From an uncultured Candidatus Saccharibacteria bacterium (lineage in GTDB: Bacteria > Patescibacteriota > Minisyncoccia > Phycocordibacterales > DATDWN01): a stretch of 50,245 nt of DNA. Position 1 is the stretch's first letter, and every line of letters begins with the position of its first letter. This document shows, in pieces, positions 33,250 to 48,860 of this stretch. Position numbers and translations under genes: made by a program. The notes beneath the pieces were generated by a model. The model did not search any database. It saw only the letters and a list, made by a program, of their open reading frames with translations, and was not told where the DNA came from. The stretch is taken from assembly GCA_964616425.1 (NCBI GenBank), contig CAZTQY010000002.1:68910-119154 (forward strand), written 5' to 3'.

Positions 33250-33282
33250 AAAAAGACTCCGGGTTATCCCCGGAGTCTTTTT
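33250..33282. terminator. Bidirectional rho-independent terminator
   Basis: AAAAAGACTCCGGG ttatc CCCGGAGTCTTTTT. Confidence 0.8.
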
Positions 33283-33292
33283 GAACAATAAA

Positions 33293-34213: not shown

Positions 34214-34245
34214 AAATTTTTTAATAACTGATAATTTACTTGTTC

Positions 34246-34644: not shown

Positions 34645-34705
34645 TGTTATAAGTTAGATTTATAATATGCGTATTATATCAAATAATTTAGTATTTATAC
34701 AAAAA

Positions 34706-34735
34706 TTGAGGTGGCTAAACTTTCAGCCACCTCAA
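34706..34735 (-). terminator. Rho-independent terminator of the XRE gene
   Basis: An 11-bp stem, TTGAGGTGGCT / AGCCACCTCAA, followed by UUUUU on the minus strand. Confidence 0.75.
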
Positions 34736-34749
34736 CACCTTAGACGGTC

Positions 34750-35139: not shown

Positions 35140-35153
35140 AAATACCTCCTCAT

Positions 35154-35181
35154 ATTAAGTTATCACAAGTGATAACTTAAT
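35154..35181. promoter_or_regulatory. Perfect 13-bp inverted repeat (candidate operator) just upstream of the XRE gene
   Basis: ATTAAGTTATCAC aa GTGATAACTTAAT. It lies 15-42 nt upstream of the XRE start codon and immediately after the ychF stop. Confidence 0.5.
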
Positions 35182-35182
35182 T

Positions 35183-36280
35183 CTATATCTTGAACTCTAT
35201 TACGTCGCCGTCTTTGACGATATATTCTTTACCTTCAGTTCTTACTTTACCTTTTTCACGTGCAGGTCCATAACCACCTGAACTAAGCAAATCATCACAG
35301 TGAACCACCTCAGCTCTAATAAATTTATCTTTAAAATCTGTATGTATTGCCTGGCCAGCCACAGGTGCAGTCGAGTCACGTAGAATAGTCCAAGCACGCG
35401 TTTCCTGTTCTCCTGTAGTAAAATATGTAATCAAATTTAGAAGCTTGTATCCAGCTTTAATAAGGCTGTCTATGCCATCATCTTTTCCACCCAACTCAGT
35501 TCGGAACACTTCCTTTTCTTCTCCTTCTAAATCCTTTAGCTCGTTTTCGATATTTGCATCTATGATAATATACTGGGCATTATTATCTTTGAAAAACTGT
35601 AAAAGTTTTGTAAATCTTTCGTCATTCATTTCATCTAAATTCTTTCCACCAGCTTTTTTATTGAGCCCGTACATTATTGGCTTGGCTGTCAAAAGGTTAA
35701 GTTGTTTAACAACTGGAGTTTCCTTTTCATCAAATGACAAAGTATTGACTAACTTACCTTGTTTCAAGACTGCATCTACTTTATTCAACACATCGTTTTC
35801 AAACACAGCTTCTTTACGGTTAGCTTTTACATCCTTTTGTAATGTTCCTAGACGTTTTGTAACTGTTTCAGTGTCCGCAAGTATTAGTTCAAAATTTATT
35901 ACTTCAATATCTGAAACAGGGTTGATGCCTCCATGAACATGAATAACCTTATCATCTTCAAATATTCTAACGATCTCCAAAATAGCATCAGTCTCTCTGA
36001 TGTTTGAGAGAAATTTATTTCCTAGACCCTCACCTTCACTTGCTCCTTTTACAAGACCAGCAATATCTACAAATTCAACTACTGCAGGAATAGTTTTTTT
36101 AGTATTTGATAGTTTAGAAAGCTTCCAGAGTCTATCATCTGGAACTGGAACAATTCCAACAGACGGATCTATAGTACAAAAAGGATAGTTCTCTGCAGGA
36201 ACAGCTTTCTTTGTTAAAGCATTAAAAAGTGTGGACTTTCCCACATTTGGTAGACCGACGATTCCGATTGATAGTGACAT
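35183..36280 (-). CDS. ychF: Ribosome-binding ATPase YchF
   Basis: GIVGLPNVGKSTLFNALT P-loop, a TGS-like C-terminus, 365 aa. Confidence 0.95.
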   Translation of the reverse strand: MSLSIGIVGLPNVGKSTLFNALTKKAVPAENYPFCTIDPSVGIVPVPDDRLWKLSKLSNTKKTIPAVVEFVDIAGLVKGASEGEGLGNKFLSNIRETDAILEIVRIFEDDKVIHVHGGINPVSDIEVINFELILADTETVTKRLGTLQKDVKANRKEAVFENDVLNKVDAVLKQGKLVNTLSFDEKETPVVKQLNLLTAKPIMYGLNKKAGGKNLDEMNDERFTKLLQFFKDNNAQYIIIDANIENELKDLEGEEKEVFRTELGGKDDGIDSLIKAGYKLLNLITYFTTGEQETRAWTILRDSTAPVAGQAIHTDFKDKFIRAEVVHCDDLLSSGGYGPAREKGKVRTEGKEYIVKDGDVIEFKI

Positions 36281-36372
36281 AATAGTTTACTATACAGCAA
36301 AACACAGTTTTTTTGAAATTTCTCTTACAAGACCAGAAGTCAGTGATAAAATATAAACAGAAGGAGGAAGAA

Positions 36373-37005
36373 ATGAGATTCAGACGTCTTGTCGTTTTTA
36401 CAACCTTCCTCCTAACTGCACAAGTTGTAGAAGGAGGTCCGCCGAGTCTCGTTGGAAGTCACGAGTCTCAATACAAACAGAATGACCGAGCTGAAGAATA
36501 CGGTCTGCCTGTAATCAAGGATGATGCTGAGCTCAGAGCCCTGAAATCATCTGGCACTCTGGTCCCCATACCTAGTATGGTGAAGATCGACCAAAGACTA
36601 TCCAATGAATGGCGTTGGTGTCTTGTTGAATCAACGTACTTTATTGGAGATATTGGGCTTGAATTCCAAGAAATTTTTGGACGCAAGTTTCAAGTCAATT
36701 CAGCTGTTAGAACGGTCCCTAGGCAACTAGAGATTACCTATGGGGACAAGAAATTCCCACCAAATGGTAACGCTGCACCAGTGAGTGGTAGACGCAAATC
36801 ATCCCACTTAACTGGAGCAACAATCGACATTGCCAAGATAGGCCTCACCAAGGACGAACTGAACTGGCTTCGCGAGAAACTCCTCCTGCTCGAGGCTCTA
36901 GGAAAAATCGAGGCAACGGAGGAACAACAGCAAGCTGTGTTCCATGTAATGGTCTTCAGGAACTACTCTGAACCACTTTCAGTACAAGAACTGCAGGCGC
37001 AATAG
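36373..37005 (+). CDS. Secreted LAS/M15-like zinc peptidase (VanY / D,D-carboxypeptidase-like fold), tentative
   Basis: AAGGAGG lies 5 nt before the ATG at 36373. It has a signal-like N-terminus (MRFRRLVVFTTFLLTAQVV), SSHLTGATIDI (the SxHxxGxAxD motif) and a distal FHV. The gene is richer in G+C than its neighbours. Confidence 0.55.
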   Translation: MRFRRLVVFTTFLLTAQVVEGGPPSLVGSHESQYKQNDRAEEYGLPVIKDDAELRALKSSGTLVPIPSMVKIDQRLSNEWRWCLVESTYFIGDIGLEFQEIFGRKFQVNSAVRTVPRQLEITYGDKKFPPNGNAAPVSGRRKSSHLTGATIDIAKIGLTKDELNWLREKLLLLEALGKIEATEEQQQAVFHVMVFRNYSEPLSVQELQAQ

Positions 37006-37030: not shown

Positions 37031-38755
37031 CTATTTTAAATCATCATCTTGTATTTTTTTCATCTGAGTTTCTATATATAGATCAATCTGACTAATAGAA
37101 TTTTTAAGCTCTTCGATGGCATCTTGTTCTTCAGCAGAAAGCTTTGCTTTTTTTCGTGATTTTTCCAACAAATTTAATTGTTTTTCTGTCTCAGTAGAAA
37201 GTAATTTGAAAGCTTTGTGGACGCGAACAGACATCAAATCAAAATCATTTTTGTAGTTGTATCGTAATTTATGGATCTTATACCAGCTATACATCAAAAG
37301 CAGTATGAACAACAGTAGCAGTATTACAGCAGGAATTAAAACTTTAAGTAGCTCAACTGTATATGAACCAACACTTAGTAAAACTGGTTTTGTTGCAGTA
37401 ATACTAACTTTTTGAGAAGAGGCAACTGTTTCTCCGTCATTTTTCAAGATCTCAGCCCAAAGTAAATACTTTCCTGACTCACTAATAGGTTTACTTTTAA
37501 AATTAAATTTAGAATAGCTATCTGCAGTGATTCTATAGTTTTCTATAGTTGATCCTTCCTTACTTAATGACACAGAAACTATTGCTCCAGCGTATGGAGC
37601 AGTTCCGCTTGCCTCAACACTTTCACCGACTTTAACTTTGATTGGATAAGAATCAATACTTATTTGAGTAATAACATCTGTAACTACAGAAATTTTCTTT
37701 TCAGTAAAATTACCGGCTTTATCATACACACGAATTGTAATATTATGCTTTCCTATTGAAGCTATTGGAATATTTGAAAAACCAACACCAGAAGAATCAG
37801 CTTTGAAAATAAAAGGTGTATCAGAATCAATTTGTGCACTATAGTAGTCTATGCCAGATAGATTGTCAGAAGCAGTTACACTCAAACTCAACCTTCCACC
37901 TGAATCCTTTTCCGTATTTACAGATACATCAGTTGGACTCTCACTATCGATCTGGATTCTATAATGTGTAATGTTAGACCAACCATTTGCGGTTAAATAA
38001 TTGATATGGAAATACCATATTCCGTCACTTAAATTTTCAATACTTTTACTTTTAATTGGAGACGAGTAGAGAACAGTTGGACTAGATACGGCACGAGTAC
38101 CTAGTAAAGTTTTTACAGCCTGAGCATTTTTTGGCAATACCCATGATAGTTCAACATCACCTTCCTTGTACCAAGTTGTTTGATCTGGGTGTGTAGAAGA
38201 TGTTACAGACAGAGCAGAATCAACTGTATCAATCTGAACTTTTTGTTCTGCAGGTGTTTCTACTGAACTACTAATGTTTATGGTTGATCCAGTTTTGGTT
38301 GATAAAATGTCTGTACCTAGACCATCATTTTCCCTGACAGCAGAGTTTGCAAAAAATATCGAAGCAACACCAGACTTTTTAGCTCTAAACACCACAGATA
38401 TAACCTTGCCGGCTGAACCAGTATAGCCAGGGTTAGGTATCCCTCCATTTAAAGTAATTTCTCCAGATATATTTGAAAAAGATGGATCGTCTACCCAAAG
38501 TGAAAAAATAGAGGATGATCTGTCTATTGAGACAACTTCAATATAGTCCTTTGGAAAATTAATTATTGTTTCCGCATTATTAATAATTTTTCCTTCAGTG
38601 TTAACTAGGATATTTACAGTGAATATGTTTCCAGCTGATACAGCTGTCACTGTTGGTTGAATATATAGACTAGCTGCAAATGCGCTCTTTACTGGAAGCG
38701 CAAAGAAACAAATTAGCAAAAATATGAAAATATATTTTAATCTAAATAAATTCAT
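37031..38755 (-). CDS. Cohesin-like domain protein with Ig-like repeats, C-terminal TM anchor and coiled-coil cytoplasmic tail
   Basis: Sec-type signal (MNLFRLKYIFIFLLICFFALPVKSAFA). The N-terminal module, SLYIQP...FTVNILVNTEGK...SIFSLWV...GGIPNPGYTGSAGKVISVVF, resembles a cohesin. TM helix LIPAVILLLLFILLLMY lies near the C-terminus. I chose the ATG at 38755 rather than 38797. Confidence 0.65.
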   Translation of the reverse strand: MNLFRLKYIFIFLLICFFALPVKSAFAASLYIQPTVTAVSAGNIFTVNILVNTEGKIINNAETIINFPKDYIEVVSIDRSSSIFSLWVDDPSFSNISGEITLNGGIPNPGYTGSAGKVISVVFRAKKSGVASIFFANSAVRENDGLGTDILSTKTGSTINISSSVETPAEQKVQIDTVDSALSVTSSTHPDQTTWYKEGDVELSWVLPKNAQAVKTLLGTRAVSSPTVLYSSPIKSKSIENLSDGIWYFHINYLTANGWSNITHYRIQIDSESPTDVSVNTEKDSGGRLSLSVTASDNLSGIDYYSAQIDSDTPFIFKADSSGVGFSNIPIASIGKHNITIRVYDKAGNFTEKKISVVTDVITQISIDSYPIKVKVGESVEASGTAPYAGAIVSVSLSKEGSTIENYRITADSYSKFNFKSKPISESGKYLLWAEILKNDGETVASSQKVSITATKPVLLSVGSYTVELLKVLIPAVILLLLFILLLMYSWYKIHKLRYNYKNDFDLMSVRVHKAFKLLSTETEKQLNLLEKSRKKAKLSAEEQDAIEELKNSISQIDLYIETQMKKIQDDDLK

Positions 38756-39623
38756 TTTTTCGTTTTTTATACCAAACAAACACCAAAACCAAAACAACTA
38801 GAGCAAAAACAACTAGCATAGTATATGTATATGATTTCTTTCCTATTTCGTATACCGAAACAGTTTTATTTCCAGCTCTGTCGAATGCAGTAACAATAAT
38901 CTTTTCGTCAGTATCCTGGTTTTGTAACACATAAGGCGAGCTTGATCTTACAGGCCCTATTTCCCCTTCTGCAACTTCAAAATAATCAATACCAGATTCT
39001 TTATCTGTTGTATTAAAAGTTATAAAAGTTTTATTTGAGAACAGAGAATCATCTTTACCTTCTATAATTTCAAATGATGCTGGAGAAGTTTTATCACTCA
39101 AGACAATATCGTCCCACTCATTAATATTTTTTGTAGATAAATTAGCAGAAGATACTATAGTTATATTTTTATTTTGAGTTTCTAACTTTGTTCCCTTACC
39201 ATCATTCAAGAAAACAAATGTGTTCTGTGGCGTAATACTTATTTCACCTTTTTTTTCTACTTCTAGCACAACACTAAACACGTTAACTCTTGATGATTTT
39301 ATTCCTCTTGGGATACCGCCTGTATAAGAAATAATTTTTCCGCTTTCCGAAATAGATGGAGATCTAGGCCAAAGCGTAAAATCTGAACCCGCCACACTTA
39401 TTGCCTTTATTACAAAACCAACATTTGTATTTATTGAGATTTCACCATCTATACTGTTTATATCCTGACCCTCAGTGTCTAAAACTACTCTAGCAACCAC
39501 GACATCACCAACAGACAAATCACTAGAAGATCTTTTTATATTTAAAGTAGCTCCATTAGCTATAAAAGGCATGACAGCAAATAGTATTATTATCAGTTTT
39601 ATGTATTTGTAGAGTTTTTTCAT
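38742..39623 (-). CDS. Cohesin-like domain protein with C-terminal TM anchor
   Basis: Signal peptide, a module paralogous to the previous gene (TLNIKRS...VVARVVLDTEGQDINS...FTLWP...GGIPRGIKSSRVNVFSVVLEV), and a C-terminal TM helix (MLVVFALVVLVLVFVWY). It overlaps the next gene by 14 nt. Confidence 0.65.
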   Translation of the reverse strand: MKKLYKYIKLIIILFAVMPFIANGATLNIKRSSSDLSVGDVVVARVVLDTEGQDINSIDGEISINTNVGFVIKAISVAGSDFTLWPRSPSISESGKIISYTGGIPRGIKSSRVNVFSVVLEVEKKGEISITPQNTFVFLNDGKGTKLETQNKNITIVSSANLSTKNINEWDDIVLSDKTSPASFEIIEGKDDSLFSNKTFITFNTTDKESGIDYFEVAEGEIGPVRSSSPYVLQNQDTDEKIIVTAFDRAGNKTVSVYEIGKKSYTYTMLVVFALVVLVLVFVWYKKRKNEFI

Positions 39624-39626
39624 AAA

Positions 39627-42575
39627 TTATTTTTTATCCCACTGATAAAGCAGAATTGAAAAATCAACTGAATCAACTTTTCCATCTTTGTTTATATCAA
39701 CTCTAGTATTTTTAAATGGAGGAGATGTTTTCCAGAATGCGAGCAAAATTGAGAAATCTACAGAGTTTACTTTTCCATCTTGATTAAAATCTGAAGTTTT
39801 TATTGCGCCAGTTACAACTGTAGCTAAAGAGTTGTTTGTGGAAGCTATTGGTGCACCTCCACCACCTCCACCGCCTCCTCCACCACCACCTGAAGTTCCA
39901 CCTCCAGTACTACTACCCGCAACTGCTGTAAAACTTCTAGAAGCTCCTGAACTTTCAGTACCGAAATACACTACTGACTTAAAGTAGTAACTACCTGGGG
40001 TAGGAACTGTCGCAGTTAGAGTTGTATTAAAATCTTCACCAGGATTTATAAATTTAGCTGCTGAACCGTAATAAACATCATTTCCTCCACCACAGGCGTT
40101 ATTTTGAGAACTCACAACACACCATTCATAGTGGTATTCATAACCAGTGAGACCTTCATTAGTGATAGTTAAATTTGCTGCAATATCAGGAACCACTAAC
40201 GGACTGACACTGTTGATTATTACTTGAGCAGGAGAACCTGTTACATCCCAATAATCATTTGTTTGGATTGTCTGACCACTTTGAACTTCAACATTTACGA
40301 CTGATTCCCACGCTCCTTGTGCTGCATTTGAAGCTACAGAGTATGTGTATTCATATACTCCAGTAGATATATTTGTCATACTGACATTCGATACAACAAC
40401 ATTTCTACTTGAATCATAAATTGTTATTGCTGGAGCTGCAAAAGGATTAGTATCTTGTCCTGAATTACTTACATATATCTTTGCTCTATAGGTATTGCCT
40501 TCAAGAATTGTTTCGGTATTTGAAAGTCTTACTGACCATGGTCCAGAGATTACTGAAATGGCTGAAGTTAATGAAGAATTCAATGAAGTAGTAGCTGTTG
40601 TTACAACGGCATTTGTATTTGAATTAATTTGTGATGTCACAGAACTTGAAGCATTTTGAACATCAGAGAGTGTCGCCAATGATCCAGTATCTAATGTTCC
40701 ACTAGTTAAAGTTCTATTATTAAAGTTCCAAATATCTGACACTGTTAACGAACCTCCGCCGATAGTTGAAGACTGAGAGTCTAGATTTATTGCGATTTGA
40801 TTACCAATTGAACCCAGAGTAGTCAAAGTAGTTGTTGAAACACCCCAAATATCAGCCACAAGTGTTCCAAATGTTGTCAGAGATCGTGAACCATATGCCC
40901 ACACATTAGCTGGGACAGACAATATTGAACTAGCTAGTTGAGATACGATAGATGATGAGGCTGTGGCAACTATGCTGTTTGTGTTGGCATTAATATTTGC
41001 AGCAAGTGATGTTGATGCGTTTAGGATGGCGCTATCTGTATTTGAGTTAACTGCTGATGTGATTCCGGATGTTGCAGAGTTTGTGTTCGCGTTAACTACA
41101 GCAGCAAGTGAAGATGTTGCTGTTTGAACATCAGATAATGTAGCTAGAGAACCTGTATCTAAGCTTGAACCAGTTAGAGTACGAGTAACTGAACTCCAGA
41201 CGTCAGTTGCTAGAGTACCGAAGGATGTGAGTGTTCGGCTACCTGATGACCAAACATTAGCTGGAATCGATGTGATTGATGATAATATCTGAGAAACAAT
41301 AGATGAAGAAGCGTTAGCTATTGATGAATCAGTATTTGCACCAACAACTGCGACAATAGACGTTGAAGCTGTATTTAATGCTGTATCAGTGTGACTATTT
41401 ACAGAAGAAGTAATTCCGCTTGTCGCTGAGTTTGTATTTGAATTAATTTGTGATGTCACAGAACTTGATGCATTTTGAACGTCAGAGAGTGTGGCTAGAG
41501 AGCCTGTATCTAGACCAGAGCCGGTAAGTGTTCTTGTAACAGAACTCCAAACATCTGTAGCCAGTGTTCCAAATGTTGTCAGAGATCGTGAACCATATGC
41601 CCACACATTAGCTGGGACAGACAATATTGAACTAGCTAGTTGAGATACGATAGATGATGAGGCTGTGGCAACTATGCTGTTTGTGTTGGCATTAATATTT
41701 GCAGCAAGTGATGTTGATGCGTTTAGGATGGCGCTATCTGTATTTGAGTTAACTGCTGATGTGATTCCGGATGTTGCAGAGTTTGTGTTCGCGTTAACTA
41801 CAGCAGCAAGTGAAGATGTTGCTGTTTGAACATCAGATAATGTAGCTAGAGAACCTGTATCTAAGCTTGAACCAGTTAGAGTACGAGTAACTGAACTCCA
41901 GACGTCAGTTGCTAATGTGCCGAAGGATGTGAGTGAACGAGTTCCAGCTGTCCAAATATCAGAAACCAAAGTTCCAAATGATGTTAATGTCCTACCAGAA
42001 TAACCCCAAAGGAGTGACGGTAACAACGTAACTATAGAGGATGATGCATTTTCAATCGAAGTATTCAAGCTAGATATACTAGTGTTTGCAGAAGAAATAG
42101 GAGCATCTAGATTTGAATTTATCTGTTGACCAACAGTTCCACTGTTATTTATTGTAGAAGTTGCAACATTCCAAACTGCAGCAGCAACTGTGGTGGTTGA
42201 TACAGACGAAGTAACAATAAAAGTTTTGTCTTGTTTTATCAAATCAACTCCTGCAGTACCACAAGACATATATGCCGGCCAAGTACCTTCTATAGGTGAA
42301 GGCGTAAAGGAATAATAGTGCCAACCGTCAGCATCAGCACTCATTGTCACTGCGTTGACTACTGTGGAGCCACTAGGATCTTTAACTGTTACCTCGCAAT
42401 CATCAGTTGAAGCAGTAAAATCATCATTATACAAATATTCCCCAAGTGTAACTGTAAAATTTGGGGCATACTGCTGATATTCAGCAAATAAATGTAATGG
42501 TATCAACAAAAGACCAAATATTAAAAATTTTACAGTCAACCCAAAAATTTTTTTACGGTCTTTTTCGATCTCCAT
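39627..42575 (-). CDS. Large secreted S/T/A/N-rich repeat protein with two beta-sandwich-like domains, a poly-Gly linker and a C-terminal type-I-like dockerin
   Basis: Sec-type signal. About five RxLT(S/T)FGTLxxDxW ... LDTGSLATLSDVQ modules. GGGTSGGGGGGGGGGG linker. Duplicated calcium-loop segments DFNQDGKVNSVDFSILL and DINKDGKVDSVDFSILL. Confidence 0.75.
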   Translation of the reverse strand: MEIEKDRKKIFGLTVKFLIFGLLLIPLHLFAEYQQYAPNFTVTLGEYLYNDDFTASTDDCEVTVKDPSGSTVVNAVTMSADADGWHYYSFTPSPIEGTWPAYMSCGTAGVDLIKQDKTFIVTSSVSTTTVAAAVWNVATSTINNSGTVGQQINSNLDAPISSANTSISSLNTSIENASSSIVTLLPSLLWGYSGRTLTSFGTLVSDIWTAGTRSLTSFGTLATDVWSSVTRTLTGSSLDTGSLATLSDVQTATSSLAAVVNANTNSATSGITSAVNSNTDSAILNASTSLAANINANTNSIVATASSSIVSQLASSILSVPANVWAYGSRSLTTFGTLATDVWSSVTRTLTGSGLDTGSLATLSDVQNASSSVTSQINSNTNSATSGITSSVNSHTDTALNTASTSIVAVVGANTDSSIANASSSIVSQILSSITSIPANVWSSGSRTLTSFGTLATDVWSSVTRTLTGSSLDTGSLATLSDVQTATSSLAAVVNANTNSATSGITSAVNSNTDSAILNASTSLAANINANTNSIVATASSSIVSQLASSILSVPANVWAYGSRSLTTFGTLVADIWGVSTTTLTTLGSIGNQIAINLDSQSSTIGGGSLTVSDIWNFNNRTLTSGTLDTGSLATLSDVQNASSSVTSQINSNTNAVVTTATTSLNSSLTSAISVISGPWSVRLSNTETILEGNTYRAKIYVSNSGQDTNPFAAPAITIYDSSRNVVVSNVSMTNISTGVYEYTYSVASNAAQGAWESVVNVEVQSGQTIQTNDYWDVTGSPAQVIINSVSPLVVPDIAANLTITNEGLTGYEYHYEWCVVSSQNNACGGGNDVYYGSAAKFINPGEDFNTTLTATVPTPGSYYFKSVVYFGTESSGASRSFTAVAGSSTGGGTSGGGGGGGGGGGGAPIASTNNSLATVVTGAIKTSDFNQDGKVNSVDFSILLAFWKTSPPFKNTRVDINKDGKVDSVDFSILLYQWDKK
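40861..41914. repeat. Two identical 352-bp direct repeats (40861-41212 and 41563-41914) offset by 702 bp (234 codons) inside the dockerin-protein gene
   Basis: I compared the two copies base by base in the listing. They first differ at 41213 versus 41915 and at 40860 versus 41562. More diverged copies of the same module flank them, for example 40618 versus 41437. Confidence 0.9.
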
Positions 42576-42609
42576 ATATACTCAATGTTCAAAAAACAAA
42601 AAAATAAAA

Positions 42610-42759
42610 CTATTTCTTTATATCATCCTTAAATGCACCCCTAAGCTGTCGTATTGCATCAGCAACACCTTTTGTTAACTCTGGAATTTTCTTTGCGCCA
42701 AACAAAAAAACAATCAACACTGCGATTATTATTATTTCTTTTGTTCCTAAATCAAACAT
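42610..42759 (-). CDS. tatA: Sec-independent translocase subunit TatA/E, 49 aa (not in the ORF track)
   Basis: My own translation: MFDLGTKEIIIIAVLIVFLFGAKKIPELTKGVADAIRQLRGAFKDDIKK. It has an N-terminal TM helix, the FG hinge and an amphipathic helix typical of TatA. Confidence 0.8.
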   Translation of the reverse strand: MFDLGTKEIIIIAVLIVFLFGAKKIPELTKGVADAIRQLRGAFKDDIKK

Positions 42760-42782
42760 ATTTTTGTTTTATTTATTATTAA

Positions 42783-42962
42783 TTACTTCTTCTTAGTGTT
42801 CACACCACTATTTTCGTCTTGAGAATCATCACTAAATGCTTTTCGTAGATTTCTTATCCCCTCGGCAATACCCTTTGTTAACTCAGGAATTTTCTTTGAA
42901 CCAAACAGGAGCACAATCACCGCTGCAATTATTATTATTTCTTTTGTTCCAAGTCCAAACAT
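42783..42962 (-). CDS. tatA: Sec-independent translocase subunit TatA/E paralog, 59 aa (not in the ORF track)
   Basis: My own translation: MFGLGTKEIIIIAAVIVLLFGSKKIPELTKGIAEGIRNLRKAFSDDSQDENSGVNTKKK. Confidence 0.8.
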   Translation of the reverse strand: MFGLGTKEIIIIAAVIVLLFGSKKIPELTKGIAEGIRNLRKAFSDDSQDENSGVNTKKK

Positions 42963-42986
42963 ATATTTGTTTTATTTATTAATTAA

Positions 42987-43721
42987 TTATACTGCTTTAA
43001 CGGATAAGCGCTCTTTGCTATATGAGTTTACTAAAATTGTTAACTCATATATTGCAACTAATGGTAGCGACATTACCACTAATGATAAACCATCAGTTGG
43101 TGGAAGTAAAGAAACGAATACAAATATAGCAACAACTGCTTGACGACGTTTTGATTTTAAGAAATCTACATTCAAAATGTTCATTTTAATCATAAAAGTT
43201 ATAACTATTGGGAACTGAAATATCACTCCGAGCAAAGCAGATGTTAAAACCATTTGTGATATAAACCTGCTAATATCCCAAAGATTTACAACGCCAAGGG
43301 ACACATTTACTTTAGCTATTATTTTTAGAGCAAAATACAAAGTTGCAAAGCCATATGAGAACCCTGTAATAAAAAGTAAGAGTCCAACAGGTAACAATTT
43401 AATAAAAAATTTCTTTTCATTAGACAAAAGGCCAGAACTTAAAAAAGAGTAAACTTGAAATACCAAAACTGGTAATGTAACAATTATTGCTGAAAACACA
43501 CCAATACTCATAGCCAAATCTACAATTTGAAATGGAGAGGTTGTTGTTATCACTACATCTTCAATTTTTAAAAATCTAATAAAAAACTTCAAAAATGGTG
43601 TAGTGAAGAAAAAACCAACACAAAAAACAATAATAAATAATATTACTAGCCTATATAATCTCATTCTTACATCTTCTAGATACTCTCCGTATTCAGTAAC
43701 GTATCTTTTTAATTCATCCAT
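42987..43721 (-). CDS. tatC: Sec-independent translocase subunit TatC
   Basis: 244 aa, six TM segments, an N-terminal ...YLEDVRMRLYRLV motif, and adjacency to two tatA genes. Confidence 0.8.
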   Translation of the reverse strand: MDELKRYVTEYGEYLEDVRMRLYRLVILFIIVFCVGFFFTTPFLKFFIRFLKIEDVVITTTSPFQIVDLAMSIGVFSAIIVTLPVLVFQVYSFLSSGLLSNEKKFFIKLLPVGLLLFITGFSYGFATLYFALKIIAKVNVSLGVVNLWDISRFISQMVLTSALLGVIFQFPIVITFMIKMNILNVDFLKSKRRQAVVAIFVFVSLLPPTDGLSLVVMSLPLVAIYELTILVNSYSKERLSVKAV

Positions 43722-43726
43722 AAAGG

Positions 43727-43912
43727 TTACTCAGACATTATGAAAATATTTGATCCACCACCGGTGACTTGCGGGATTTCTAATATAAGATTCTGACAAC
43801 CACTTGATTCAACTAAAATATCATCAAAACCACCCGTATATACAACACTTGGTAGTTCTACTAGGAAATCCTGACCTTCACCTGATTGGAAACAAATATC
43901 TTTAAATGCCAT
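43727..43912 (-). CDS. Hypothetical small protein, 61 aa
   Basis: Tightly packed in the operon, with 5-nt gaps on both sides. I recognised no family. Confidence 0.4.
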   Translation of the reverse strand: MAFKDICFQSGEGQDFLVELPSVVYTGGFDDILVESSGCQNLILEIPQVTGGGSNIFIMSE

Positions 43913-43916
43913 AAAT

Positions 43917-44588
43917 TTATACTATTTTTCTAGAAGGTTTGTTAGTTAGCATACTTATTGGCTTATCCAGTAGCACTTCTTCTGCGGGGACAACCTCTGG
44001 TACCGCAATATTTTCAGGTATAACCTCAGGAGCAACTGGTTCAATTGGGGTTTCACCTACTGGTGTTTCTTCTACCGGCAACTCTTCTACAGGAGGCTCT
44101 TCTACTGGAACTTCTTCAGGTGTTTCCTCCACCGGAACTTCTTCTTCCACCATAGGAACCTCTTCCTCAACCGAAGTTTCTTCAACAGGAGTCTCTTCTT
44201 CGGCAGGAACCTCTTCTACAGGAGATTCCATCTGACCTTCAGTCTTAGCCTGCTCATCGCTTATTACTTGGTCGAGAGATGTAGGTTCGAGAGAACCTTC
44301 ATCCATCTGAGAAAGTAATTCATTTGTCATACGAACATATGAGGCAGCCGTATGAGTTGACTCTGCGTCTATTTTTAATATTTCTTCCCCTAATTCTTTC
44401 GCGCTATTAAAACGATACACCATACCCCCATATTTTATGTATTGCGCTGCAAATGAACCTGCAACAATATCAGGATTATCTATATTACAGAACTCGATCA
44501 ACACATTGTCAGCATAATCCCCAGTGGCAGTAACCACTTTTAAATTTTCATTATCTGCAACACCTTGACCTTGTTCAATGTGAATCAT
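43917..44588 (-). CDS. Hypothetical protein with a globular N-terminal domain and an acidic Pro/Glu/Val repeat tail
   Basis: The C-terminal 90 aa consist of (E/P)VPVEE(T/P)-type repeats encoded at about 43990-44225. No signal peptide. Confidence 0.5.
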   Translation of the reverse strand: MIHIEQGQGVADNENLKVVTATGDYADNVLIEFCNIDNPDIVAGSFAAQYIKYGGMVYRFNSAKELGEEILKIDAESTHTAASYVRMTNELLSQMDEGSLEPTSLDQVISDEQAKTEGQMESPVEEVPAEEETPVEETSVEEEVPMVEEEVPVEETPEEVPVEEPPVEELPVEETPVGETPIEPVAPEVIPENIAVPEVVPAEEVLLDKPISMLTNKPSRKIV

Positions 44589-44591
44589 AAA

Positions 44592-47252
44592 TTAATATTG
44601 TATAAGCAACGCTCTAACTTTAATATCATCACCTATGTCTGTAGTTGTATATCTTATGTAAGTTGTTTCGTTAGTTTTGTCTAGAAAATCATATGTGTCC
44701 CAAGTAGATCCATCATCAGTAGACTTTTCGAATGTTCCATATGAATGGTTTGTAGTGTCGTCAGTCAAAAGTTCTCCATCTGTTTCTGCATTATAGAAAA
44801 TAACTTTCAATCTAGGCACAGTCGAACCAAAAGCAGTAGAGAATCTCCAAGCAAATATCTTGCTTGTTATCGAAGAATGCGCGACAGATGGCTGATAGTG
44901 ACTATCTGTTGTATTGTCTTCATAAGTACAACATATATTATATACACGATCAGGTAGACACAAAGCACCTATAACTCTAAATTCAATAGCAAACTGAACT
45001 TCATCTCCAGCTAACGCACTTGAGATATTCCCAGTCTGATCTACGAGTGTCCATGTTCCAGAGTTATCACTAATACCAGATGTTCGATAATATATTCTTA
45101 TTGGCTCTGTTGGTAAAGTTAAACCCCCATCTCCCAAATACCCTGCTGTATTTACAAAAACTCTGGACAACTTCACAGCATTTGTTGTGGAAAGTGCAGG
45201 TGTTATCAAACGTTGATTTACTGAACCACCTGCATATTGCCAATCCGCACCAAGAGGTACCGCATACATGATGTTTGTAGTGGAGGCAGTACCGGTACGC
45301 ACCATATAAACTAACCCAGCTTGAGACCAGACAGACAATAGAGCCCCTTGGGGACTTGGGTGTGGCACTGAATTTGAATCCGCTGTTGATTGATCCTGTT
45401 GTGCTGTGTCAGCTAGAAACATATGATCAAATTGATAAGATCCCGAAGCATCGTATTTTGTAATATATGCTCGGTGATGTGCTGTAGTTCCTCCAGCGCC
45501 AGTAGATGTAATGATTAGTCTATCTATCTGATCTGCTATTTCCACTCCGGTCATAAGTGAAGAAGCTGTATATGTTCCAGAACCACCAGTTGGAACTTCT
45601 GTCATTGAATCTGAAACCCAAGAACTACTTCCTTGGGTAATCTGAGATGTAGGTGCTCTGTGTATACGAGTAGTTGCAGCAAAGTATAAACATTCCTCCC
45701 CTGCACCAGGTCCATGAGAAAGTGTTCCAACACGACCATTATTAGTTTGAGTTACTGTTCCAGTTACTGTCTGAGTAGCAGTAGTTAATACCCAAGCAGA
45801 TGCAGCCTTACCAGCCTCTACTCCACCCAATGTACTTAAATCTGCTCTAAAATTATATTTATAAACTTGAGGGGTGGTTGCCGCTTGAAGCTCAATTATA
45901 TAAGCATACTGTGATGTCCAGCTTGTACGATCACCTAAAGCCAAACCACAAGAAATACCATTACCTCCAACAATCACATAAGCAGATCCTCCTGGCACAG
46001 TAGTTGCAGATGAAATAGTTATACCTGTAGTAGATCCGACAGCGGTAATTGTAAACCATTCAGTAATAGCCAGTGGGTTGGTAGAGCCGAAACCAATCAT
46101 ACAACCTAGGTGCGTAGCTGCAGCCCAAGAAGTACCAGCACCAGTTACAGCAGTAGTTCCAGGCACAGTTACCGTACCTGTAGAATATACTAAATCCAAA
46201 TCAACCAAACTATAAACAGCCTTAGCCTTATCAACAGTTGTTGCTGCTGCAATAGTGGTTCCACCAACAACAAAGTCATCATAAGAAACTCCATTTACCA
46301 TTGATAAGCCTCCTGCGGCAATTACGACGGATGTTGTAGACGTTAATATTTTTAAATCTTCAATAACATACGCCGTACTTGAAGCGACTGTAATATTTGC
46401 AGCAGTACCTCCAGTACCACTAGCAGTAATATTTGCTTGAATTGTTATTGAAGTATCAGAAGATACAGCGTTTACATAATACCAAGTTGATATTTGTGTA
46501 GGATCAGAACTGCCAAAACCGATACGAGAACCAATTGCTATACGATCTGAGGACCATGTAGTACCAGAACCAGTAACTGTGGCACCAGAAACTCCAACTG
46601 TACCAGTTGTATATTTATCGTACACAGCTCGCATGCCTCTTATAGTTTGGTTACCACCTCCAGTTGGATAAGTGATAGTAATAAATCCTCTCCAAGTAAA
46701 CAAAGATGTCATTCTGTCGTACAAAAAACAAGATATACGTCGAGTTGCAGCTGCTGTTGCAAGATCTGCTAAAAATACCCAATCCTTTTTAACTTCTTTG
46801 TCAATAATAAATGATGTACCACCAGCAATTGTCCCAGCAGAAACTGAAATTGACAAAGAAGTATCAGAAGAAATAGAGCTTATAGAGTACCAGGTAGTAA
46901 TATCTGCTTTACTTGTTGAACCAAAACCAATGCGTGCTCCGATTGGCACACCATCAGCAAGCCATCCTGTACCGCTACCAGTAACAGATGTAGAGGAAAC
47001 GCTGACAGTACCTGTAGTATAAAAACCTTCTTTGTTTACCCAAGAAATAACGTGAGGGTAAGTAGAGGGAATTGCCGTACCAGTTTCGTTCGGACGACCA
47101 ACTCCTATTTTTGCCGGTCCAGCAAAATTATCAGTGACGCCTGCCCCACTATATTGTTCAATCAAATCCCCCATTGTTGTTAAAGAAGGATCATACGCAT
47201 CATAATGTGTAGTAACTCCTGAAAAAATATGTTCTATTGCCCTTTTTGCCAT
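44592..47252 (-). CDS. Large T/S/G/A-rich protein with a threefold roughly 58-aa repeat and no signal peptide (hypothetical)
   Basis: 886 aa. The repeats are Y(T/S)TGTVxVxxxxVTGxGTxW...IGxxIGFGSxxxxxIxxW(Y/F)xIxxVxSxTxIxI at aa 78-136, 214-271 and 356-414 (nt 46011-47021). Confidence 0.6.
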   Translation of the reverse strand: MAKRAIEHIFSGVTTHYDAYDPSLTTMGDLIEQYSGAGVTDNFAGPAKIGVGRPNETGTAIPSTYPHVISWVNKEGFYTTGTVSVSSTSVTGSGTGWLADGVPIGARIGFGSTSKADITTWYSISSISSDTSLSISVSAGTIAGGTSFIIDKEVKKDWVFLADLATAAATRRISCFLYDRMTSLFTWRGFITITYPTGGGNQTIRGMRAVYDKYTTGTVGVSGATVTGSGTTWSSDRIAIGSRIGFGSSDPTQISTWYYVNAVSSDTSITIQANITASGTGGTAANITVASSTAYVIEDLKILTSTTSVVIAAGGLSMVNGVSYDDFVVGGTTIAAATTVDKAKAVYSLVDLDLVYSTGTVTVPGTTAVTGAGTSWAAATHLGCMIGFGSTNPLAITEWFTITAVGSTTGITISSATTVPGGSAYVIVGGNGISCGLALGDRTSWTSQYAYIIELQAATTPQVYKYNFRADLSTLGGVEAGKAASAWVLTTATQTVTGTVTQTNNGRVGTLSHGPGAGEECLYFAATTRIHRAPTSQITQGSSSWVSDSMTEVPTGGSGTYTASSLMTGVEIADQIDRLIITSTGAGGTTAHHRAYITKYDASGSYQFDHMFLADTAQQDQSTADSNSVPHPSPQGALLSVWSQAGLVYMVRTGTASTTNIMYAVPLGADWQYAGGSVNQRLITPALSTTNAVKLSRVFVNTAGYLGDGGLTLPTEPIRIYYRTSGISDNSGTWTLVDQTGNISSALAGDEVQFAIEFRVIGALCLPDRVYNICCTYEDNTTDSHYQPSVAHSSITSKIFAWRFSTAFGSTVPRLKVIFYNAETDGELLTDDTTNHSYGTFEKSTDDGSTWDTYDFLDKTNETTYIRYTTTDIGDDIKVRALLIQY

Positions 47253-47261
47253 TTGTTAAAA

Positions 47262-47888
47262 TTAAATTTCTAAATAATCAATATTAATTTGTACTGTAGT
47301 TGTTCCTGATATCACACAGTATAGCACCTCATCGACTCCACCTTCAATATAATTTGGATGATTGTTAGCACCATACAATCCTCCAGTCTTTGGTGAGACA
47401 TATTTTTCATGATCTGTGCCTCCAGATGTAAATCGAAATGAAACTGAAGTTGCATCTGCAGTTAAAGAAAACCTATTTGCATACACCCGAATTTTTTTTC
47501 CAGAAGATGGAGTAAGAACGTTGCCAGAAGATGCCAGACTTGTAGAAAGTTTTGTGACACCTTGACCAGATATGAGAGAAGCCAGAGTTTCCTCTGTAGC
47601 AGGACTAACTCTTGTATTAGAAGCATTTTTAAGACCTACAACATTAGATGTTGGAGCGTTACCTAGGACGTAAGCTTCTGTTTTCTTTGGTAAAACTTGA
47701 GAAGCAACAATACCCAAACCAGTAATTCCGGCAATTTTTAAAAATAACCTCTTATGGTTATCTACAGATTCTTTCTTGACTCTAACTTTTTTATTTGCAA
47801 TATTTGCCTTTTTATTTTCAAAAGCAAAATCGCCTAATTTTTTATTAGATACAAACCTAAAAGAATATTTAGTTGGTAAAATTTTCAT
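47262..47888 (-). CDS. Hypothetical exported or anchored protein with a Tat-like KRLFLK signal and a beta-rich C-terminal domain
   Basis: A Lys-rich 45-aa N-region is followed by KRLFLK-IAGITGLGIVASQVL-PKKTEA (nt 47673-47753). It is the first gene of the operon that also contains tatC and tatA. Confidence 0.5.
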   Translation of the reverse strand: MKILPTKYSFRFVSNKKLGDFAFENKKANIANKKVRVKKESVDNHKRLFLKIAGITGLGIVASQVLPKKTEAYVLGNAPTSNVVGLKNASNTRVSPATEETLASLISGQGVTKLSTSLASSGNVLTPSSGKKIRVYANRFSLTADATSVSFRFTSGGTDHEKYVSPKTGGLYGANNHPNYIEGGVDEVLYCVISGTTTVQINIDYLEI

Positions 47889-47990: not shown

Positions 47991-48566
47991 TTAGTACACC
48001 CTCCTTCCCCATTTTTCAAATTTTGCAACCCACTTTTCTCGATGTTCTGTTGAAATTTTTTTCATTGGCCCACATTTTTGCATTCTAGTGTTTATTCCAG
48101 CAAACCAAAGTATACCGTCTTGTATTTCGTTTGTATTATCTCCAAAAAGAAACCTCGCGAGTATCGGTCTAGAGTCAGAAGTAACAAAGACTCTTCCTGT
48201 TCGTCCTTTCAAAAGCTTATTCCAACCAAGACCGTTTGGTTTAAATTTGTACGCAAAGCCTGGAAGCCATACTCTATCAAACAGTCCCTTTAGTAATGCG
48301 GGCATTGTAGACCACCAAGAAGGATAGATAATCACTAAATGATCACACCATCTAACATCTTCTTGAAACTTCAGTAGATCAGGCTCAAGAGCCTGTATAA
48401 CCTTGTATCCCTTGTGAAGTATTGGATCAAACTGCATATCACCGAGATTTGCTCTCCTGACTTCATGACCAGCCTCCCTAGCACCTTTTGCATAACTATC
48501 TGCCAACTCACAACACATTGATTCTGTATCCGGGTGACCCAATAAAACAAAGATTTTTTTAGACAT
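47991..48566 (-). CDS. Flavodoxin-like-fold NAD(P)H oxidoreductase (quinone reductase / KefF-like family)
   Basis: KIFVLLGHPDTESMCCELADSY...HLVIIYPSWWSTMPALLKG is typical of the Flavodoxin_2 family. Confidence 0.7.
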   Translation of the reverse strand: MSKKIFVLLGHPDTESMCCELADSYAKGAREAGHEVRRANLGDMQFDPILHKGYKVIQALEPDLLKFQEDVRWCDHLVIIYPSWWSTMPALLKGLFDRVWLPGFAYKFKPNGLGWNKLLKGRTGRVFVTSDSRPILARFLFGDNTNEIQDGILWFAGINTRMQKCGPMKKISTEHREKWVAKFEKWGRRVY

Positions 48567-48575
48567 GTGTATATA

Positions 48576-48803
48576 TTACATCAATCCCTTCAAATCTGCT
48601 TCATACTTTTTAACCACCTTCATAGTAGCTGACATCTGGTCACTTCCTGTTCTTTTCATCTCTTCTTGAACCTCCATTCCTATTTTTTCAAATAAACCTG
48701 GATTTTTTTCTAGCATTGCAAAAACTTTGTCTTGATCCGCTTGTGGCACACCCTTCATCTGACTTGATAGCATTTTTTTCAATAAGAAATTTTTTATAGA
48801 CAT
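48576..48803 (-). CDS. Hypothetical small helical protein, 75 aa
   Basis: It sits 9 nt upstream of the oxidoreductase gene. I recognised no family. Confidence 0.4.
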   Translation of the reverse strand: MSIKNFLLKKMLSSQMKGVPQADQDKVFAMLEKNPGLFEKIGMEVQEEMKRTGSDQMSATMKVVKKYEADLKGLM

Positions 48804-48860
48804 ATTTTGTTTAATTTTATTTACCTCTTTAATATACTATATGCTATAATTTACTCAAAT

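Follow-up and report, generated by a model that had tools for sequence, protein, structure and literature searches.

Why would a bacterium keep a Tat translocase, a protein resembling phage tail fibers, and a dockerin–cohesin set side by side in one run of genes? The question is raised by ten co-directional, tightly spaced genes on the minus strand (37031–47888; Table 1) of a 50,245-nucleotide stretch of DNA, referred to here as the window, whose sequence contains no N and in which every ORF of the cassette is intact. All ten minus-strand ORFs listed in a first-pass annotation were recovered at their coordinates, with successive intergenic distances of 9, 3, 4, 5, 24, 23, 34, and 3 nt followed by an overlap. 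The spacing described there (3–26 nt or overlaps) holds at its lower limit and in the overlap, but not at its upper limit, since TatA2 and the 982-aa gene lie 34 nt apart. The cassette is real and conserved across many uncultured Paceibacteria, bacteria whose cell-to-cell contacts remain mysterious, and is probably an undescribed cell-surface apparatus. Full-text literature searches returned no paper with this gene combination, in keeping with the earlier remark that no such system had been described. On balance, we slightly favor reading it as a two-module cell-envelope cassette of Paceibacterota (Parcubacteria-type CPR) that joins a Tat-exported part to a dockerin–cohesin fiber.

Table 1 Features of the ten-gene cassette and the evidence on which each is assigned.
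Feature	Description	Position (nt)	Strand	Basis
p208	208 aa, long Tat-type signal	47262..47888	-	Motif in orthologues, alignment A3
p886	886-aa all-beta protein, no signal peptide	44592..47252	-	phrog_1591, fold model, homologues
p223	No signal peptide	43917..44588	-	Alignment A4
p61	61-aa acidic protein	43727..43912	-	Alignment A5, synteny
TatC	Six hydrophobic segments	42987..43721	-	PF00902 E 6e-39, hydropathy
TatA paralogue 1	59 aa	42783..42962	-	PF02416 E 1e-13
TatA paralogue 2	49 aa	42610..42759	-	PF02416 E 1e-10
p982	Sec-type signal to C-terminal type-I dockerin	39627..42575	-	Dockerin_1 E 7e-10, MG2 E 9e-8
coh293	293 aa, predicted cohesin protein	38742..39623	-	Model, Foldseek, family Pfam matches, hydropathy
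coh574/588	Paralogous predicted cohesin protein	37031..38797	-	hhalign, domain matches, hydropathy

A search of related genomes for the same neighborhood, proposed with the first-pass annotation, found it widely. Among 37 species-level Paceibacterota loci with enough flanking sequence, in which seven gene types were compared, all seven lie within ~10 kb in 34. Gene by gene, p61 is present in 37 loci, TatC, TatA, and p208 in 36 each, and p223, dockerin, and cohesin in 34 each, while TatC lies no more than ~10 kb from p886 in 36/37. Three gene arrangements occur (collinear, fiber/cohesin trio divergent upstream, and TatCA upstream), and the flanking housekeeping genes vary from locus to locus. 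This rearranged order, together with the differing flanks, indicates that selection, not an inherited order, keeps the genes linked. In-frame fusions, which are topologically consistent, join TatC to the fiber (L001, L002) and the two cohesin proteins to each other (L018, L019). Identity falls along a gradient from p886 (76% median), the best-conserved full-length component, through the dockerin (71%) to the cohesins (~35%).

The tatC, tatA, tatA assignment of the first-pass annotation was borne out by profile HMM matches. TatC also aligns over its full length with Aquifex TatC (4b4a, E 1e-16, residues 13–234). TatA paralogue 1 scores 56.8 bits with the NCBIfam tatAE model (TIGR01411, cutoff 53.9); paralogue 2, at 46.3, is under that cutoff and could be a TatA-like or TatB-like subunit. 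In Gram-positive bacteria a minimal TatAC system is sufficient. A close parallel is the minimal phoD–tatAd–tatCd operon of Bacillus subtilis, in which a TatA/TatC-only translocase is likewise encoded with its own client and there is, as here, no recognizable separate TatB family member. The client here, however, would be a small protein with mostly KR-x-FLK rather than an RR phosphodiesterase, and three signal-less partner genes and a fiber/anchor module lie alongside.

That candidate client is p208. Its motif K46-R-L-F-L-K51 (KRLFLK, nt 47736–47753) is followed by a weakly hydrophobic h-region (KD 1.76), an A-x-A-type cleavage site (T-E-A before Y) ending at A72 (nt 47673), and a highly conserved, beta-rich mature domain of ~135 aa. 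Across 63 distinct orthologues the motif reads [KR]-R-x-F-[LI]-K, with K (53) or R (10) at position 1, an invariant R, and nearly invariant F, L/I, and K; residues D43, R47, L50, K51, P67, and A72 are invariant in alignment A3. A twin-arginine motif with KR in place of RR can still work. Because most p208 orthologues carry KR and not RR, the motif is non-canonical, and this counts against our preferred model. The mature domain is 81–88% identical across >120 clusters, and p208 matched nothing in Pfam, NCBIfam, or PHROG. The first-pass annotation saw its only Tat-like signal in this gene, and KRLFLK is indeed the sole such motif in the window; p208 is also the only Tat-signal protein across the window and 77 related genome loci (each up to ~23 kb), in which no second genuine Tat-type signal was found. 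The only two further matches to the motif, one within TatC and the other on the opposite strand, look spurious. We infer that p208 is exported by Tat.

The next protein, p886, had been described as a large orphan, a view that falls with the existence of family members in viral contigs. It matches phrog_1591 'tail fiber protein' in three stretches (E 1e-15) and has >1068 homologues, the family forming 546 clusters at 50% identity, with close Paceibacterota relatives 71–84% identical. In the predicted model (pLDDT 80) the body appears to be of beta-propeller type, with three ~75-aa beta-barrel inserts like phage tail-fiber N-terminal repeats. Foldseek returned phage endosialidases, a chain of the T7 fiberless tail complex, and uncultured Caudovirales proteins (E 1e-14); TM-scores to the endosialidases of 0.19–0.24 indicate likeness only at the level of the propeller fold. 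The propeller-plus-inserted-barrel architecture and phrog_1591 repeat recall K1F/phi92 endosialidase tailspikes and the propeller tail proteins of T7/P22-type podoviruses. Unlike these, p886 is chromosomal with no virion genes nearby, has two extra barrel inserts, and is strongly conserved among cellular genomes.

Full-length homologues of p886 with 33–48% identity are carried by 64 viral contigs (GC 0.26–0.72), none of which bears Tat, p208, dockerin, or cohesin genes. A set of 50,697 deposited phage genome records yielded no homologue. On several viral contigs, relatives of p886 and p61 adjoin tail-fiber genes. Individual loci encode portal, major capsid, and tail genes (L124), terminase and portal (L086), protease-capsid and portal (L107), or tail-fiber genes (L117, L099), and in 25 a fiber-type gene with a conserved C-terminal domain lies directly upstream of the p886 homologue. 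One homologue (P0369) is extended by a PKD-like region and by consecutive SxDxGxTW (Asp-box) motifs, which, going by eye from the sequence, we read as sialidase-like and as part of a typical tailspike architecture. Viral and CPR sequences interleave in a neighbor-joining tree of the family. In one clade (L001–L004) the p886 slot holds a protein without detectable homology to p886, a point against our preferred model. The viral-contig family membership of p886, and likewise of the 61-aa ORF, had been overlooked in the first-pass annotation.

The p61 ORF is a real conserved gene, with a C-terminus (N-[IV]-F-I-M-S-E) that is invariant among the three sequences of alignment A5. It lies next to a p886 homologue in ~10 viral loci and in an Armatimonadota genome (L068), there in a TnpB/HNH/exonuclease region. 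p223 has a conserved N-terminal domain of ~95 aa, then an acidic spacer rich in Pro, Glu, and Val, and ends in a short basic stretch; its tail contains tandem repeats. In the L001/L003 clade the orthologues have an inserted glucosaminidase-like domain that scores 30.4 bits with PF01832 (cutoff 30.2).

We propose that p208, p886, p223, p61, TatC, and both TatA paralogues constitute a first module, a substrate-dedicated minimal TatAC translocase whose client would be p208 with its KR/RR-x-FLK signal. p886 would fold in the cytoplasm, as phage fiber and spike proteins do, possibly with the small, acidic p61 as its assembly chaperone, and would bind p208 and be carried across the membrane as its Tat 'hitchhiker'. 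p223, with its Pro/Glu-rich spacer and, in one clade, its glucosaminidase-like domain, may span or remodel the wall. Tat carries folded proteins along with signal-less partners, and in Escherichia coli hydrogenase-2 (HybO/HybC) and Streptomyces tyrosinase (MelC1/MelC2) a small Tat-signal subunit adjoins a larger signal-less partner, as it does here. In contrast to those pairs, no cofactor or enzyme is evident here, complex formation and co-export are our proposal, and the putative passenger is a ~93-kDa protein of phage type. A p886 trimer (~3 × 93 kDa) would be larger than any known Tat cargo, so that p886 would have to hitchhike as a monomer or heterodimer.

Alternatively, Tat might export p208 only, with p886, p223, and p61 staying in the cytoplasm (e.g., for intracellular assembly) or leaving by another route, so that their linkage to Tat would reflect co-regulation and not co-transport. 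Consistent with this, hydropathy finds no hydrophobic segment in these three proteins, which also lack signals; p886 and its viral-contig homologues share the same N-terminus, which thus shows no adaptation to export; no p208–p886 fusion occurs in any locus examined; and known Tat cargo sizes speak against export of an oligomer. We nonetheless consider this reading unlikely, though it is the most credible of the alternatives. In nearly all loci p208 directly precedes p886 (9 nt apart in the window), the two are unusually conserved, as in a tight complex, TatC stays near p886 in all but one of the compared loci, and the glucosaminidase-like domain of the signal-less p223 orthologues would need to act outside the membrane. 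At the same time, known host-range adhesins are not conserved to the very high degree seen in p208 and p886, which counts against our preferred model, and the excess of this conservation over that of the cohesins argues against a Tat cargo that is a fast-evolving, host-specific adhesin.

The second proposed module comprises p982, coh293, and coh574. After its signal, p982 continues through an Ig/MG2-like domain, Ser/Thr/Asn/Ala-rich 117-aa tandem repeats (nt ~40612–41863, with a DNA repeat unit of 351 nt), MG2-like and beta-sandwich domains, and a poly-Gly linker (nt ~39852–39908) to the dockerin (nt 39651–39794). A profile-HMM check suggested with the first-pass annotation recovered this dockerin at residues 928–975 (PF00404, 39.3 bits; cutoff 22.9). 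Its calcium-loop repeats, DFNQDGKVNSVD and DINKDGKVDSVD, are 31 aa apart, and it matches the Clostridium thermocellum dockerins 2mte, 1daq, and 4fl4_A. p982 is the only dockerin carrier in the window and has no catalytic domain; its orthologues are between 312 and 2308 aa long.

The two C-terminally anchored proteins are, on their predicted fold and family relationships, divergent cohesins, each with a single cohesin module. Hydropathy places an N-terminal signal on both, as well as the C-terminal TM helices that had been claimed for them. In coh293 a signal peptide and cohesin module (~aa 25–160, nt ~39144–39551) are followed by an Ig-like domain (~aa 185–260) and the TM helix (aa 266–284). 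The Foldseek top 50 for its AlphaFold model (pLDDT 91) are mostly solved cohesins, including 2w1n (E 1.5e-10), 2vo8 (TM 0.80), and 2xdh (TM 0.76). The earlier cohesin call thus stands on predicted fold and on PF00963 matches in 9/35 members of the 293-aa family (best E 3e-8), but neither window protein has a direct Pfam cohesin match. The paralogue, coh574/588, aligns with the coh293 family (hhalign probability 99.9%, E 2e-33) and has extra Ig-like domains, Big_13 and OmpL47-type domain matches, a TM helix at aa 483–501 in the 588-aa reading, and beyond it a charged tail of ~85 aa that is presumably cytoplasmic. This last gene most likely starts at ATG 38755 (574 aa, 14-nt overlap); a TTG start at 38797 (588 aa) is less likely. 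The signal peptide begins at M15.

We suggest that p982 is a Sec-exported fiber of variable length whose type-I dockerin would plug into one or both single-cohesin proteins, these being kept in the membrane by their TM helices. Dockerin and cohesin occur together in 34 loci, are both missing in 3, and are discordant in 0. Their unequal identities (71% and ~35%) are not obviously expected of a fixed interface and weigh against this model. Together, the two modules may form a structure on the cell surface with which the envelope of another cell is contacted or attacked. The cellulosomes of C. thermocellum and Ruminococcus flavefaciens likewise combine a canonical duplicated calcium-loop dockerin with cell-bound cohesin-fold proteins, and solved cellulosomal cohesins dominate the fold matches of the cassette cohesin. 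Here, however, there are no dockerin-bearing enzymes and no CBM, each protein has one cohesin, a C-terminal TM helix takes the place of SLH or sortase as the anchor, the dockerin-bearing protein is a non-catalytic repeat fiber, and neither window cohesin reaches the Pfam threshold. Cohesins are also found outside cellulose degradation. The best structural match of coh293 is the cohesin plus FN3 double module 2w1n, which, like 2vo8, represents the Clostridium perfringens GH84C/GH33 cohesin-FN3 modules, and 2xdh is the Archaeoglobus fulgidus cohesin. Whereas the C. perfringens modules serve to assemble secreted glycosidases or toxins, the partner here would be a fiber, and the set is linked to a Tat module.

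The cassette might instead hold two independent neighbors, a Tat-plus-phage-like system and a general CPR cohesin–dockerin anchoring system, with no functional coupling. Distant cohesin-protein relatives have a dockerin gene (L152) or additional cohesin genes (L153) as neighbors but no Tat gene, and two loci (L059, L062) have the Tat module with no cohesins and with fiber homologues that lack a dockerin. The modules are therefore separable, which counts against our coupled model, and a second dockerin–cohesin–cohesin trio in L008 and L044 points the same way. Independence is nevertheless rather improbable in our judgment, given modules adjacent in 34/37 species, in at least three arrangements and differing chromosomal contexts, and the in-frame fusion of TatC to the dockerin fiber.

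We regard as very improbable a surface glycan degrader, that is, a 'mini-cellulosome' or depolymerase in which the p886 propeller acts as an endosialidase-like glycosidase. Phage endosialidases are the best PDB fold matches of p886, one family member is apparently fused to an Asp-box region, and p223 orthologues of one clade have the glucosaminidase-like domain. Against this stand the low endosialidase TM-scores, the single, non-catalytic dockerin protein, and the one cohesin module per cohesin protein. Profile searches (Pfam, NCBIfam) of the ten window proteins matched no glycoside hydrolase, agreeing with the first-pass annotation, and no CBM or other enzyme.

A decaying prophage or mobile-element remnant, with fiber genes beside tat genes by chance, would account for the p886 and p61 homologues in viral contigs and in the TnpB/HNH/exonuclease region and for the viral/CPR interleaving, but is scarcely credible given intact ORFs, strong purifying selection on p886 across species, a cassette in almost every species sampled, flanks of housekeeping genes (e.g., LeuRS, YchF, PheT, GyrB, TyrRS, RpoC), and no capsid, portal, terminase, or integrase either among the profiled flanks (27121–37005, 47991–49682) or in precomputed annotation of related CPR loci.

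The coupled cassette that we favor would share with tailocins, T6SS, and extracellular contractile injection systems the concept of phage structural proteins kept for cell–cell interactions. It differs from them in having only fiber-module genes, with no sheath, tube, or baseplate, and, as proposed here, it would reach the surface through Tat, a route that none of those systems uses.

The cassette, ten minus-strand ORFs of 208, 886, 223, 61, 244, 59, 49, 982, 293 and 588 aa, is nearly universal among the sampled species. One genome per GTDB species was scanned, yielding 77 loci that were annotated locally with HMM and phmmer searches, and components were tallied on the 37 with enough flank. 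The neighbourhood picked out by the first-pass annotation recurred in these related genomes, where 34 of the 37 loci held the full component set. Dockerin and cohesin were both present in 34 loci, both absent in 3 and discordant in none. Members of the cohesin and p886 families (cassette proteins are named by length in aa) lay amid this gene set at chromosomal sites that are otherwise unrelated, and the cassette takes three arrangements: collinear, with the fibre/cohesin trio divergent upstream, and with tatCA upstream. Conservation within the close clade followed a gradient (median-type values): p886 76%, dockerin 71%, TatA 61–69%, p208 65% over its full length, p223 57%, p61 56%, TatC 49% and cohesins 34–36%. 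A genome scan with a single-sequence TatC query recovered only 4 loci and says little on whether TatC always lies in the cassette.

Intergenic distances within the window cassette are, in order, 9, 3, 4, 5, 24, 23, 34 and 3 nt, and the last junction is an overlap. The last gene most plausibly starts at the ATG at 38755, which stands ahead of its signal peptide and gives a 574-aa product and a 14-nt overlap. Four genes (p208, p886, p223 and p61) are without a Pfam or NCBIfam family. The window contains no N and no tRNA or Rfam matches, and its promoter and terminator scans gave counts not above shuffled expectation. The genes on either side are housekeeping genes or typical of CPR bacteria (LeuRS, YchF, cupin, DUF5671, DUF5715, two YceG, flavodoxin-like). 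A flavodoxin-like gene upstream and YchF downstream enclose the cassette both in the window and in the related locus L006, but the tat genes of L006 lie at a different place within the cassette. The cassette proteins have their closest relatives in ‘Candidatus Paceibacterota/Pacebacteria/Parcubacteria’ MAGs. Many of the cassette loci L008–L084 are titled ‘uncultured Candidatus Saccharibacteria’ or ‘Gammaproteobacteria’; we suspect that these titles are unreliable because the named relatives are Paceibacterota/Parcubacteria.

Positions of features in the window and in related loci (L numbers), and occurrence of components among the 37 adequately flanked loci
Feature	Position	Description or occurrence
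Cassette	window 37031-47888 (-)	ten ORFs
YceG/MltG-like genes	window 27121-28119 and 48807-49682	two, <22 kb apart
Flavodoxin-like and YchF genes	window 35183-36280, 47991-48566; L006 7302-7892, 22298-22412	enclose the cassette
Tandem units of p982	window 40612-41863	four 351-nt (117-aa) units, A-B-A-B pattern
Poly-Gly linker ahead of p982 dockerin	window 39852-39908	~13 glycines
Charged tail after TM helix of longer cohesin protein	window 37031-37290	~85 aa
Second dockerin-cohesin-cohesin trio	L008 5155-8090; L044 5129-8810	
TatC-fibre fusion	L001 7282-9993; L002 3458-6169	
Fused cohesin proteins	L018 4940-7321; L019 4792-7161	~790-aa ORF
Repeat protein in p886 slot, with the altered p223 of the same clade	L001 2762-6337; L003 1702-4551, 4564-5466	repeat protein 949-1191 aa
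phrog_10330/35197-bearing gene upstream of p886 homologue (examples)	L086 6214-9993; L099 7470-10001; L110 1470-4151	
p886 + p61 pair	L068 4850-14262	
TatC		36/37
TatA		36/37
p208		36/37
p61		37/37
p223		34/37
Dockerin		34/37
Cohesin		34/37; at least two cohesin ORFs in 33
All components together		34/37

The dockerin at the end of the 982-aa repeat protein (p982, the fibre), already recognised in the first-pass annotation, is firmly identified. Measured against the type-I dockerin pattern of two tandem ~22-residue segments, each with an EF-hand-like calcium loop, it matches PF00404 at 39.3 bits (cutoff 22.9), has two canonical calcium loops, DFNQDGKVNSVD and DINKDGKVDSVD, 31 aa apart, and is matched by phmmer to the C. 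thermocellum CelS and GH9 dockerins 2mte, 1daq and 4fl4_A. Hydropathy places a signal at the N-terminus of p982. Two repeat copies 702 nt apart are 98% identical, which points to recent duplication and to a risk of repeat collapse in the assembly, and fibre orthologues are 312–2308 aa long. The poly-Gly run gave spurious PDB matches to synthetic scFv linkers.

Support for the two anchored proteins as cohesins, coh293 and coh574/588 (its length depending on start choice), is less direct. Neither was matched by Pfam Cohesin (PF00963) at E <= 0.1, and NCBIfam searches and phmmer against the PDB gave nothing significant for cohesin. The earlier call of cohesin-like proteins thus lacks a direct profile match but stands on fold comparison and on Pfam matches in family members, and we read both proteins as cohesins on these two grounds. 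PF00963 matches 9 of 35 members of the 293-aa family (best E 3e-8), and the family profile gave marginal matches to R. flavefaciens cohesins in the PDB (E about 0.1). With a nine-stranded beta-sandwich (jelly-roll) as the fold criterion, the best Foldseek matches of the coh293 model (pLDDT 91) are nearly all solved cohesins, at target-normalised TM 0.64–0.80 (2w1n, E 1.5e-10; 2vo8, TM 0.80). The 588-aa protein is a clear paralogue of coh293 with extra Ig-like domains. Both have Sec-like N-terminal signals and C-terminal TM helices by hydropathy. Since coh574/588 combines an N-terminal signal with a single TM helix, its charged tail is presumably cytoplasmic, which hints at an intracellular partner or a signalling role. 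Ahead of the main cassette, on its upstream side, L008 and L044 each carry another, shorter dockerin-cohesin-cohesin trio whose dockerin protein is only 312–353 aa long.

Significant Pfam matches to all three tat genes confirm the order tatC, tatA, tatA read at first pass. TatC matches PF00902 at 134 bits (cutoff 25.1), scores 121.6 against the stricter NCBIfam equivalog cutoff of 132.7, aligns over its full length to Aquifex TatC 4b4a and has six hydrophobic segments by hydropathy; the two TatA paralogues match PF02416 at 50.4 and 40.9 bits (cutoff 21), and one passes TIGR01411. The p208 protein carries K46-R-L-F-L-K51 (H-K-R-L-F-L-K in the window), then a mildly hydrophobic stretch and then P-K-K-T-E-A↓Y, a KR variant when compared with the strict Tat consensus of (S/T)-R-R-x-F-L-K, a weakly hydrophobic h-region and an A-x-A site. 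Across 63 distinct orthologues (53 KR, 10 RR) the motif is D-x-x-[K/R]-R-x-F-[L/I]-K, with R, F and K essentially invariant and L nearly so; orthologues in L059 and L062 read [K/R]-R-x-F-F-K. Its h-region has a KD value of 1.76, against 2.0–2.35 for the Sec signals of neighbouring genes, and its mature domain is 81–88% identical over >120 sequence clusters. No second Tat-type signal was found among the window ORFs, in agreement with the earlier assignment of the only such signal to the first gene, and the 77 related loci held two further motif matches outside p208, both spurious-looking. These findings support a TatAC encoded together with p208 as its one recognisable, predicted client. A p208 profile found nothing significant among PDB sequences. 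Homology of p208 to a phage fibre C-terminal domain (phrog_10330/35197) was considered and rejected, at an hhalign probability of ~0.1% with both small and enlarged alignments.

Two gene fusions were observed, and both are topologically sensible. In L001 and L002, from two samples, TatC lacks a stop codon and reads on in frame into the dockerin fibre; the fibre's signal peptide would then serve as TM helix number seven. L018 and L019 have both cohesin proteins in one ORF, in which the TM helix of the first runs straight into the signal peptide of the second. An apparent p886-p223 fusion in L057 is an artefact of a masked N-run.

The p886, p223 and p61 proteins have no hydrophobic segment by hydropathy. 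A p886 profile found nothing significant among PDB sequences; p886 is nevertheless of phage type and matches the tail-fibre family phrog_1591 via three internal repeats. Its model (pLDDT 80) is all-beta, with phage endosialidase tailspikes, a T7 fiberless tail complex chain and other propellers as best PDB matches; TM-scores are low, and the likeness is therefore architectural. Against BFVD, the model matched uncultured Caudovirales proteins with E down to 1e-14. An IMG/VR scan identified p886 homologues in 64 viral contigs (33–48% identity, mostly near full length, GC 0.26–0.72), none of which carries TatC, TatA, p208, dockerin or cohesin genes; p61 lies beside the homologue in about ten of them and p223 in two. 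Among the viral loci whose neighbours were profiled, L124 encodes a portal-type connector (phrog_332, named ‘head-tail adaptor’), a major head protein and a tail protein, L086 a terminase and portal, and L107 a protease-capsid and portal; in L117 and L099, tail-fibre genes come immediately before the p886 homologue. The viral context of these homologues is genuine. A conserved C-terminal domain, phrog_10330/35197 (~150 aa, on proteins of 133–2181 aa, several with tail-fibre repeats), occurs in the ORF that stops where the p886 homologue begins; this holds for 25 of the viral loci L085–L148 and also for L059 and L062.

Cellular and viral sequences interleave in a neighbour-joining tree of p886. 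Clustering at 50% identity divides the family into 546 clusters, most of them about 710 aa long; the form of 886 aa is derived and has additional barrel inserts. When 50,697 deposited phage genome records were searched by tblastn with the window p886 and three of its homologues from viral contigs, none matched, so that phage occurrences of the family so far are in uncultivated viral contigs only. The longer family members inspected have no Tat signal of their own and no fusion to p208.

A prophage would account for the viral relatives of p886, but it is ruled out because the profiled window flanks have no capsid, portal, terminase or integrase genes and the surroundings in the window and in related CPR loci are housekeeping genes. 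A cellulosome, to which the dockerin and cohesins might point, is excluded because the cassette differs from one in having no enzymes, CBM or multi-cohesin scaffoldin: no GH or CBM profile matches any of the ten proteins, as the first reading had found for glycoside hydrolases, and the window has one dockerin protein, itself no glycoside hydrolase, and one cohesin module per protein. Module A (p208, p886, p223, p61, TatC and two TatA) resembles dedicated Tat operons of the phoD-tatAdCd type and Tat hitchhiker pairs, and module B (p982 and the two cohesin proteins) resembles non-cellulosomal cohesin-dockerin pairs. Taken singly, the parts are variants on known themes; what is new is their combination. 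A full-text literature search found no paper on this gene combination, in line with the earlier remark that no such system was described. A freshwater CPR study notes only the occurrence of TatA and TatC in Paceibacteria (PMC9166423), and an essential protein with a dockerin domain is noted in a Tn-seq study of Saccharibacteria (PMC10633639).

The system is real, widely conserved and largely unannotated, and the results support a two-module envelope cassette with a plausible mechanism. Module A would be a minimal TatAC with its p208 client and three signal-less proteins. Fibre and spike proteins of phages acquire their fold in the cytoplasm, often helped by small chaperones, and Tat is the pathway that takes proteins already folded, along with partners that lack a signal. 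The simplest model is therefore that p886 crosses the membrane through Tat under escort by p208, with p61 as a putative assembly factor for p886. The p208 and p886 genes are adjacent and jointly highly conserved. We hypothesize that p223 is a wall-spanning or wall-remodelling component because its orthologues in the L001/L003 clade have gained a glucosaminidase-like (PF01832) insert. Module B would provide a Sec-exported fibre of very variable length whose dockerin plugs into two membrane-anchored cohesins. Each module is also found alone; their linkage survives several rearrangements, which together with the TatC-fibre fusion argues that the modules would work together. Strong conservation of p208 and p886 suggests a conserved target or a structural core, in which case the fibre and cohesins would be the variable parts. 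Candidate tasks for the assembly are adhesion to a partner cell, digestion of the partner envelope, or something else.

Paceibacteria/Parcubacteria are among the most abundant uncultured bacteria, and CPR cell-contact mechanisms are known mostly from Saccharibacteria. It is possible, though we consider it unlikely, that Paceibacteria have domesticated a phage tail-fibre-module pair, p886 and p61, and that a private Tat, with p208 as signal-bearing escort, brings the already folded pair to their own surface to work with the cohesin-docked fibre as a previously unknown organelle that docks onto or breaches the partner-cell envelope. Such an organelle would in effect be a phage-like host-recognition tip mounted on a bacterium. 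If true, this would be the first Tat export of a phage-derived structural protein and the first cohesin-dockerin system building a cell-contact appendage. Should the two-module model with p208 as escort hold, a natural family of KR-type signals and a non-cofactor passenger of very large size would be added to Tat biology, cohesin-dockerin biology would gain a role outside polysaccharide degradation, and cells would be seen to reuse phage fibre proteins by a new route. The cassette also offers expressible parts, namely a Tat signal, a dockerin-cohesin pair and a phage-type propeller protein.

A 2094-aa family member (P0369), read by eye, appears to join a p886-like N-terminal half to a PKD-like region, which is followed by repeated SxDxGxTW (Asp-box, sialidase-like) motifs and an extended C-terminus, a layout typical of a tailspike. 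The large repeat protein in the p886 slot of L001–L004 was considered as a p886 relative and rejected for want of detectable homology; the same clade has the altered p223. Three tandem p886 paralogues of ~885, 815 and 950 aa replace one in L048, L055, L066, L070–L073 and L077–L079. A p886 and p61 pair lies without Tat, dockerin or cohesin on a 1.36-Mb contig labelled Armatimonadota (L068), where its neighbours are a TnpB-type transposase, an HNH endonuclease and an RNase T-like exonuclease.
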